From: Phycisphaerae bacterium
GTDB lineage: Bacteria; Planctomycetota; Phycisphaerae; SM23-33
Direction of reading: 5' to 3'
Length of the DNA: 64,000 nt
NCBI GenBank assembly: GCA_039683615.1
Contig: JBDKRA010000017.1
Span: 266,235-330,234, forward strand
Shown: positions 38,536-40,290 of the stretch, one piece after another
How the letters are laid out: each line of letters starts with the position of its first letter
Numbering within the stretch: the first letter of the stretch is position 1
Program-made: the position numbers and the translations under genes
Notes under the pieces: generated by a model
Seen by the model: only the letters and a program-made list of their open reading frames with translations
Told to the model about the DNA's origin: nothing
Databases searched by the model: none

Positions 38536-40290
38536 ATGATCAGAGCGGTAGGGTACATCAGGCGGTCAACAGACAAGCAGGATCTCAGCCTGGAGCAACA
38601 GGAAGCGAAGTTGCGCGAGTACGCGCTGTCGCAAGGCTGGGAGATGGTGGAGGTCTTTGCCGACGATGCCGTCTCCGGCAGCGAGATGGATCGGCCCGGG
38701 CTCAAGAGATTGCTGGACTATGCCGAGCGTGTCTGCGATGTCGGGGCGGTGGTAGCGTGGGATCGGAATCGGCTGGCGCGTCCCAAAGATCCCATGGACG
38801 GGATGCTCCTGGAGCGTCGGCTGATCGGCTGCGGCAAGCGGGTGGTGTATGCGGCAACGGGGCAGGAAGCGGATCGTTCGTTTGCCGGCGGATTGCTCGG
38901 ATATGTCGAGCACTACCAGAACGGGGATTATCTGCGCAAGCTCTCGCGGGACACGATGCGGGGCCTGGTCAACCGTGCGCAGCGCGGGCTGTGGACGGGC
39001 GGGCCTATTCCGTATGGGTATGACCGGCTGATCGTAGACCAGGACGGCGCGGCAAAGCGGATCGTTCGGGACATGCCGGATCGGTCGCAGGTGGTGCTGA
39101 GTCCGGAAAGAGGGGAGGTGGTCGAGACGGTTGCTGCAGGCCGCCGGTATTCCAAACAGGAGCACGAGCTGTGCACCCTGGTGCCGTCTGAATCGGCCAG
39201 AGTGCGGGCGGTGCAACGGATGTTCTGCGACTATGCGGCTGGCAAGCCGATTCGCAAGCTTCGGGATGAGTTGAACCGGACGGGGCTGCGGACTGCACGG
39301 GGCCGGATCTTCACGGCTGCGACAATCCATCACATGCTGGAGAATCATGCGTACGCCGGGGTGTGCGTTTACAACCAGCGGACGGAGAGCAAGTGGCACC
39401 GGCTGACGGGCGGCCAGAGCCGGGAGCGACAGGATGAAGGGTTGGAGACGCGGCCTGAGGCGGACTGGATCGTCACAGAGGATGCCTGGGCTGCCCTGGT
39501 GGATCGTGAGACGTTTGAGGCGGTCCAGAAGCGACGCAAGGCCTCCAAGATCGCCAATGTCCGGATGACGGGCAACAAGGTGCATTCGGAGAACCTGCTG
39601 ACGGGTCTGTTCTTCTGCGGGGTCTGCGGCGGAAAGATGTTCGGTTGGACGAAGCGGAACTCTCGGGGATACGGAAAGCGGTACTACACGTGCGCAACGC
39701 ACCACCGGGGCGATGAGGATGCCTGCCCGAAGCGGTACAGCATCCCGGCGGAACTGGTGGAGGATCATATCCTGGGATTGATCCGGCAGGATCTGCGGCG
39801 GCTGGCCGATGATGACAAGCTGCATGAGTACGTCGCGCAGGAAGTCCAGCGGCTGACGGGCGGCCAGGCTGACGCCAAGCGGGAACTGCAGCAGCGTCTT
39901 GCGGAAGTGGATCAACGGGCGGCGCGGCTGCGGGACCACCTGAAATCTTTGGATACTCAAACTGCCGAGACGTTGGGGCTGTACTCAGAAGCCAGGGAAC
40001 TTGCCCAGCAGCGTATGCAAGTGGAGTGTGACCTAGCCGACGCTCGCAAGGGTTCGCCGGAACTGCCGGACCTGGGCGAGATCAGAGACAAAGCCGCCGA
40101 AGCATTCGAGCGGTTGGAGGATGTTCTTACTGGCGGGACCATCGAGGAAAAGCGGGAATTGATCGGGCTCTATGTACAAACGATAAAGGCTGAACCGGAC
40201 TCCTACAGCGTCCAGATCAGCCTGTATCCCGCAATGTTTACTGCGGTACTAGCGGGGGGAGGATTCGAACCTCCGACCTCCGGGTTATGA
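38536..40290 (+). CDS. Large serine recombinase (resolvase, recombinase, zinc ribbon and coiled-coil domains)
   Basis: GYIRRSTDKQ catalytic Ser, DRNRLAR, GGPIPYGY, CGVCG...YYTC...CP; last codons are antisense to tRNA-fMet. Confidence 0.93.
   Translation: MIRAVGYIRRSTDKQDLSLEQQEAKLREYALSQGWEMVEVFADDAVSGSEMDRPGLKRLLDYAERVCDVGAVVAWDRNRLARPKDPMDGMLLERRLIGCGKRVVYAATGQEADRSFAGGLLGYVEHYQNGDYLRKLSRDTMRGLVNRAQRGLWTGGPIPYGYDRLIVDQDGAAKRIVRDMPDRSQVVLSPERGEVVETVAAGRRYSKQEHELCTLVPSESARVRAVQRMFCDYAAGKPIRKLRDELNRTGLRTARGRIFTAATIHHMLENHAYAGVCVYNQRTESKWHRLTGGQSRERQDEGLETRPEADWIVTEDAWAALVDRETFEAVQKRRKASKIANVRMTGNKVHSENLLTGLFFCGVCGGKMFGWTKRNSRGYGKRYYTCATHHRGDEDACPKRYSIPAELVEDHILGLIRQDLRRLADDDKLHEYVAQEVQRLTGGQADAKRELQQRLAEVDQRAARLRDHLKSLDTQTAETLGLYSEARELAQQRMQVECDLADARKGSPELPDLGEIRDKAAEAFERLEDVLTGGTIEEKRELIGLYVQTIKAEPDSYSVQISLYPAMFTAVLAGGGFEPPTSGL

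Follow-up and report, generated by a model that had tools for sequence, protein, structure and literature searches.

A 5.5-kb integrative element comprising ORF A, ORF B, a winged-helix (wHTH) gene and a large serine recombinase gene is very likely present at 34769-40258 of the window, with its attP site in the last codons of the recombinase gene and with the C-terminal tail of the recombinase being swapped on insertion. The window is the whole stretch of DNA that was analysed, 64,000 nt of a Phycisphaerae bacterium (GCA_039683615.1, contig JBDKRA010000017.1, 266,235-330,234 of the forward strand), and all positions refer to it unless another locus is named. In the proposed arrangement, the 3' terminus of the initiator tRNA gene would serve as attB. 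In the free circle the recombinase gene would read ...VLAG-AGFDGSKKPRQVGFRY-stop, and after insertion it would read ...VLAG-GGFEPPTSGL-stop, with 10 codons and the stop borrowed from the antisense strand of the tRNA gene; that is, insertion would replace a conserved 16-residue tail with 10 tRNA-antisense residues. A preliminary description of this DNA had proposed that excision would exchange the two tails, and both the pairing of the att sites and the reading frames support this proposal.

The end of the recombinase gene over the tRNA gene

The features at the right end of the element are as follows.

38536..40290, + strand, large serine recombinase, integrated-state form, 584 aa (Pfam Resolvase, Recombinase, Zn_ribbon_recom)
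40249..40324, - strand, tRNA-Met(CAT) with initiator features (ARAGORN and sequence)
40335..40363, - strand, promoter-like site upstream of the tRNA, TTGACT-17-TACGAT (consensus match only)

The C-terminus of the recombinase is VLAGGGFEPPTSGL, followed by the stop codon TGA at 40288-40290 (ORF translation), and its AGGGFEPPTSGL-TGA is the antisense strand of tRNA-Met(CAT), with the TGA overlapping the antisense of the CAT anticodon. Given the position of the tRNA (40249..40324, - strand), the last 12 codons of the recombinase gene are antisense to the tRNA, from the discriminator base and acceptor stem to the anticodon loop. The hallmarks of an initiator tRNA are three G:C pairs adjoining the anticodon loop and an unpaired 1:72. 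In the tRNA of the window, 1:72 is unpaired and three G:C pairs lie beside the anticodon loop, and we take it to be the initiator tRNA from these hallmarks. The end of the ORF and the tRNA found by ARAGORN agree with the earlier proposal that the integrated gene ends on the antisense strand of tRNA-fMet.

It is also plausible that the promoter of the tRNA gene fires antisense into the recombinase gene in the integrated state. Such convergent transcription from 40363-40335 may damp the expression of the recombinase, because the terminator would now be 5.5 kb away.

The recombinase belongs to the large serine recombinases (LSRs), which follows from its three domains: a resolvase catalytic domain (PF00239, E = 1.2e-21, residues 4-152), a recombinase domain (PF07508, E = 5.6e-20) and a zinc ribbon (PF13408, E = 9.4e-15). 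It had been called a serine integrase before these profiles were run, and all three matched. In the family alignment, in which the protein of the window is the reference row, R9 and S11 are invariant, as are C361, C364, C386 and C397. The AlphaFold2 model has a coiled-coil insert of long helices (405-533) followed by a beta-hairpin (547-563), and the recombinase profile aligns to SPbeta SprA (9dxh) over 239-550. A search of its own genome returned the recombinase as a single copy with a 100% self-match.

Pairing of the att sites and the predicted crossover

The following features bear on the two ends of the element.

34769..34777, + strand, core TAGCGGGGG at attL, the second of two copies in the window
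40250..40258, + strand, core TAGCGGGGG at attR, antisense of tRNA positions 73-65
34778..34827, + strand, P' arm and orphaned excised-state tail codons (residues 3-18 of AGAGFDGSKKPRQVGFRY), TGA at 34825-34827
40257..40258 (= 34776-34777), no strand, predicted crossover dinucleotide GG, attP dyad centre
34737..34767, - strand, terminator-like hairpin with a T-run, read as the displaced tRNA terminator and B arm, following the end of the tRNA directly once attB is reconstructed

When the frame of the recombinase is carried over to 34769, it runs on as AGAGFDGSKKPRQVGFRY to the TGA at 34825-34827, so sequence and translation both agree with the in-frame continuation that the preliminary description had pointed out. 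The 9-mer TAGCGGGGG by itself is weak evidence for a pair of att sites: it occurs twice in the window, against 0.52 copies expected, and at least two copies were found in 12 of 100 shuffles. The pairing is backed by other observations. The sequence at 34769-34787 is identical to attR at 17 of 19 bases, with cAGGtTTCGA after the core. The reconstructed attP is dyad-symmetric at 12 of 22 positions, compared with 2-9 in most chance candidates. A matrix built solely from codons 9-18 of the tails in 10 other elements ranked the site in the window 38th among 105,795 ten-residue windows in six frames. Identity, dyad symmetry and rank thus bear out the assignment of 34769 as the other att site. In a repeat-family search of the window, the att repeat was not among the 20 largest families.

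In relatives' loci, the T-arm next to attR is TAGCGGGGGGAGGATTCGAACCTCC in 11 of 12 copies of tRNA-fMet. The T-arm at attR matches these copies and is therefore host sequence, so that the differing C at 34778 and T at 34782 belong to the element, which places the exchange within the nine shared bases. Summed over the 11 elements, including that of the window, the dyad symmetry of attP had a single peak at core positions 8-9, where it scored 130 out of 264; the scores of 30 other centres were 36-90. From this symmetry, the crossover is predicted to lie at GG, at tRNA positions 66/65, the junction of the acceptor stem and the T-stem. A crossover within TAGCGGGGG would leave the tRNA intact, in line with the earlier suggestion that it keeps the T-stem intact.

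With respect to the Islander signature, the whole tRNA is at attR, and the copy at attL (9 nt identical, or 17 of 19) is shorter than the 44-48-nt fragments of relatives. Hairpins similar to that at 34737..34767 flank native tRNA-fMet genes in relatives. The joined site, that is, the left flank of the window directly followed by the tRNA as it would have been before insertion, was not found among the relatives' sequences compared. A relative of the same genus has an intact tRNA-fMet without a close homologue of the recombinase, and the 3' flank of its tRNA is unlike the left flank of the window.

The recombinase family and its layout in relatives

The search for homologues matched 185 proteins, most of 581-585 aa, and the C-terminus G[FL][EA]P.[TA][SF]GL was present in 63 of the 120 that were listed. 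Seventy-eight loci were fetched (45 from genomes and 33 from metagenomes), from Phycisphaerae, other Planctomycetota and Hydrogenedentota. Tail DNA antisense to the tRNA was found in 43 of these 78: a whole tRNA-Met followed in 35, only the 3' half of a tRNA in 7, and the remaining one was cut by the end of its contig. Comparison of these loci shows that the recombinase family as a whole has this layout.

The other end of the element was searched for by requiring the same dinucleotide at both ends and by scoring the P arm against the P' arm. In this way it was located in 10 further distinct loci (L027, L039, L045, L046, L048, L056, which is identical to L089, L062, L077, L080 and L087), giving elements of 5.7-10.8 kb. 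By visual reading, several left flanks of the relatives' elements have hairpins like those in the 3' flanks of native tRNA-fMet genes. A candidate attL in L094 (tail AGARFQRN) did not fit and was left out: the implied element of 3.6 kb is too small for the core genes, and the match is probably due to chance. A tandem copy in L027 was likewise rejected: that genome contains a single full recombinase, and what lies upstream is 81 nt duplicated from the 3' end of the gene. This duplicate (L027 799-879) is 98.8% identical and is joined to the P' arm straight after a sugar-kinase-like chromosomal gene; from its make-up, it is an attP-like junction at the left end of an integrated element, and it is used here as such a junction only.

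The loci with half a tRNA bear on a different account, in which there is no swap at all: attP would hold the tRNA's 3' half in full, as the islands of tyrosine integrases do, crossover would take place in the anticodon loop, and the protein would always end in ...GFEPPTSGL. The 7 loci with a tRNA-type tail that lack the 5' half of a tRNA after it favour this account, as do the 44-48-nt fragments of the tRNA 3' half held by relatives. However, a 22-nt pattern searched with up to 3 mismatches has one match in the window, and only 19 nt match at 34769. There is no second copy of the 3' half in the window, and a whole tRNA 3' half in attP was rejected. In addition, both of the half-only loci that were examined have a second element beyond the half-tRNA. 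In L065 (2567-4550), this neighbour carries homologues of ORF A and ORF B, while L070 (11753-15915) has a homologue of ORF B and a truncated N-terminus of a tyrosine integrase, with a whole tRNA-Met 4.1 kb further on. The 3' halves in these loci would therefore have been displaced and reused as attB. The account without a swap is thus very improbable, and the tail exchange is retained as the preferred reading.

Among 40 relatives of the genome of the window, one has a close homologue of the recombinase (59% identity). This patchy occurrence and a GC content of the element below that of its surroundings are counted as support for its mobility. Among the viruses of IMG/VR the family is not common; of the 12 viral-contig loci, only one (L107) was a true relative. 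In some loci (L041 11690-11782, L078/L079 and L107 11700-11725), the gene departs from the tRNA sequence right after TAG and no tRNA is nearby; the tails there are ...QRIVVPQPSS..., ...QRIEVPPPYS... and ...IVWS.

Conservation of the tail of the excised form

It had been asked at the outset whether the attP tails of homologues are random in length and sequence. When this was tested on the 11 reconstructed tails, they were not random in length, in motif or in frame-specific conservation. Their lengths are 18, 19, 21, 20, 20, 22, 24, 36, 20, 20 and 21 codons, i.e. 18-24 codons in 10 of 11, and the chance of a first stop in codons 19-25, computed from composition, is 0.12 per sequence. The 11 tails are not independent, since L046/L080, L045/L077 and L056/L087 are close pairs. 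Residue 18 is Y or W in all 11; in most tails, position 12 is R or K, position 16 is hydrophobic and position 19 is basic. The residues R12, S8 and R17 are written in different codon families across the tails. For example, the window and L087 share F5, D6, S8, R12, V14, R17 and Y18, with Ser encoded by AGT versus TCT and Arg by AGA versus CGG. Over codons 9-19, the mean BLOSUM62 score per residue is 0.78 in frame, the five remaining frames giving -0.51 to 0.02, and the in-frame value was reached by none of 2000 shuffles. Conservation is lowest at third codon positions (0.32 versus 0.42 and 0.44). Non-randomness in length, motif and frame places the tail of the excised form under selection at the level of the protein, and it is this that comparison of the reconstructed tails shows to have kept the tail.

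Alternatively, the conservation 3' of attL could reflect a DNA or RNA signal, such as an attP that extends further, or a promoter or terminator of the left end, instead of a protein tail. Codons 3-8 are conserved whichever of the six frames is read, and they make up the P arm's inverted repeat (e.g. TGAGTCAAA / TTTGACTCA), and being conserved in every frame they indicate that the tail is partly constrained as DNA. Past codon 8, however, conservation is confined to frame 0, the third positions vary most and the Ser and Arg codons are unrelated, and a nucleic-acid signal in place of a protein tail is therefore improbable.

At least two motif classes can be distinguished among the tails, some natural non-tRNA tails are short or unlike both, and conservation is not uniform. 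The second class, ...AFWxRFxxAA, ends in AA in 6 of 6 among the homologues listed, and it occurs in the nearest relatives of the protein of the window (P0002, P0004, P0040, P0114 and P0119) and at L066 11721-11786. The Ala-Ala ends of this class resemble ssrA-type degradation tags. The excised tail in the window ends in GFRY, not in an ssrA-like -AA.

What the exchange may do

In the mechanism that we propose, the free element would make the recombinase with its native tail, and this enzyme would integrate the element at the tRNA gene; insertion would then swap the tail, and the enzyme of the prophage state would have a different activity or lifetime, as has been reported for Mx8. By analogy with IntP and IntX of Mx8, the tail may belong to the integration-competent enzyme, and its loss could alter activity, site preference or half-life in the prophage state and help to retain the element; we regard this as possible, at somewhat less than an even chance. 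A wider proposal is that the exchanged tail acts as a state sensor. The peptide that is only present in the excised form would license integration or, in the -AA class, mark the enzyme for proteolysis, and the tRNA tail would change direction or lifetime, such that recombination itself would do part of the job of a recombination directionality factor (RDF), as a rule that would hold generally, across several phyla, for serine integrases that target tRNA genes. This proposal is tentative, and in such breadth it is rather unlikely to hold.

The swap may also be real and neutral. attP would then lie in the 3' end of the gene for compactness, the excised tail would be mildly useful, for instance for solubility or end protection, and the tRNA tail would substitute for it with nothing changed. 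Both tails are predicted to be unstructured and lie beyond the confident hairpin at 547-563, with no structural role visible in the AlphaFold2 models: pLDDT is below 50 for the integrated tail (residues 567-584 of the protein of the window) and for the excised-form tail (residues 576-593 of P0043, a relative with a natural non-tRNA tail). Neutrality would also fit with the need of the prophage form to excise and with the very short non-tRNA tails of some relatives, such as AGAGG and AGASYGA. On the other hand, the frame-specific motif lies 30-50 bp past the crossover, outside the usual half-site of serine integrases, which argues for a specific role, and the tail lengths are tightly clustered. 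A neutral swap is thus possible and, in our opinion, doubtful.

Relation to known systems

Like the LSR of the window, the serine integrases phiC31, Bxb1, A118/LI and SPbeta SprA combine a resolvase domain, a recombinase domain and a zinc ribbon with a long coiled-coil insert, and they share with it short dyad-symmetric att sites with little identity between attP and attB. In those four systems, the integrase gene does not contain attP, and integration is into protein genes or intergenic sites. SSV-type integration splits the int gene into two distant parts. Unlike in the SSV type, the recombinase gene of the window would stay whole, with its last 16 codons being exchanged; SSV1-type archaeal integrases are described as having attP within the int gene (PMC4383910).

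The closest precedent is IntP/IntX of Mx8. According to the account in PMC6070905, which is cited in PMC4383910, attP of Mx8 lies within int, and integration results in a recombinant gene whose 3' end is new and in an active enzyme with altered properties. The likeness is in the position of attP inside the coding region of the integrase and in the change of the C-terminus by integration. Int of Mx8 is a tyrosine recombinase, whereas here the enzyme is an LSR whose new tail would be antisense to an initiator tRNA. A second parallel is found in mycobacteriophages of clusters G, N and P, in which integration into a tRNA gene reportedly rewrites the repressor gene at its 3' end, the host provides the stop codon and ssrA-like C-terminal tags decide stability (PMC9262239). 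There, as that article describes it, the repressor is rewritten and the integrase is a tyrosine integrase, whereas in the window it is the integrase that would be rewritten, with an excised tail in ...GFRY and not -AA.

Among serine recombinases, the integration site of Paracoccus phage vB_PamS_Pami6 was predicted to be in a tRNA-Met gene (PMC6536676), and the site of one streptococcal integrative element (IME) is within the serine integrase gene (PMC5357655). As these articles present them, both are single cases in passing, and the passages concerned describe neither a conserved state-specific tail nor a family-wide rule; Pami6 is a phage-sized prophage, and the streptococcal IME targets the snf2 gene. 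Literature searches of main texts returned no description of this recombinase family and none of a serine integrase with a state-specific tail.

The analysis also shows that, in Planctomycetota, serine integrases regularly target tRNA genes, contrary to the older view quoted in PMC4383910. Serine integrases are prized for genome engineering because a separate factor determines their direction, and an integration event that rewrites its own enzyme would, if true, be a new and simple control of direction or dosage. It would also provide integrases with a universal and well-conserved landing site, the initiator tRNA gene.

Other genes of the element

Between the left end and the recombinase gene, the element contains the following.

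34873..35235, - strand, hydrophobic ORF of 120 aa in the left, variable portion of the element (ORF list)
35361..36515, + strand, ORF A, 384 aa, conserved core gene, with a homologue in 11 of 11 delimited elements
36794..38002, + strand, ORF B, 402 aa, probable rolling-circle replication initiator, with a homologue in 7 of 11 elements
38106..38525, + strand, winged-helix (wHTH) protein, 139 aa, just 5' of the recombinase gene (Pfam DpnI_C, E = 4.5e-12)

Neither the 120-aa ORF nor ORF A matched a family in Pfam, PHROGs or NCBIfam, and a known RDF family was not found among the proteins of the element in the same three collections. ORF A, by its occurrence in every delimited element, is a candidate directionality factor. 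ORF B has a weak match to phrog_33635 "endonuclease" (E = 8.6e-13), and its Atlas neighbours are Rep_trans and G2P-like clusters (score 0.97, TM 0.80), which serve as a lead only; it probably encodes a rolling-circle replication initiator. A homologue of the 139-aa wHTH protein was absent from the other 10 elements. The truncated tyrosine integrase of L070 adjoins the whole tRNA, and elements with genes like ORF A and ORF B are stacked at tRNA-fMet in L070 and L065. This arrangement suggests that one replication module pairs with either type of integrase.

Flanking sequences

To the left of the element lie the following.

34293..34592, - strand, C-terminal fragment of a tyrosine integrase, older island 3' of the same tRNA (YRHTFGS...GNSPDICRHHYA in translation)
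33264..34193, - strand, gene of the sialate O-acetylesterase family (Pfam SASA, 2.2e-55)
32948..33187, + strand, ORF of 79 aa that resembles a small DNA-binding protein, without a Pfam match

The fragment at 34293..34592 encodes only the C-terminal ~100 residues of a tyrosine integrase. We take the left flank to be what remains of an older island with a tyrosine integrase at the same tRNA; the LSR element would have entered later. The stretch at 34293-34768 is 74% identical to L012 2201-2690, which is on another contig of the same genome (G000:C49), with fragment, spacer and terminator in the same order; that module adjoins the 3' fragment of a different tRNA. Both modules end at about the same truncation point, which is odd for independent decay. 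The region 32948-34193 has a low GC content and may be the rest of the older island.

The proximity of this decayed island could point to the element being itself a fixed, dead remnant, in which the frame through the tRNA has no present function. Against such a remnant, the ORF of the recombinase is whole and all invariant positions of the family are kept, as seen with the protein as the reference row of the alignment; ORF A and ORF B are open, and the core is kept at both att sites. A dead remnant is accordingly quite improbable, and we continue to regard the element as one with an exchangeable recombinase tail.

Two kinds of repeats lie close to the ends of the element. On the left, a 64-nt stretch at 34584-34647 (core ~34605-34634) recurs with 89-97% identity, often in multiple copies, in the genomes of many relatives and may be a small dispersed repeat. 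On the right, two adjacent 72-nt repeats (40396-40467 and 40473-40544) are 81% identical to each other, and a core of ~30 nt within 40396-40544 recurs in the same genome and in relatives.
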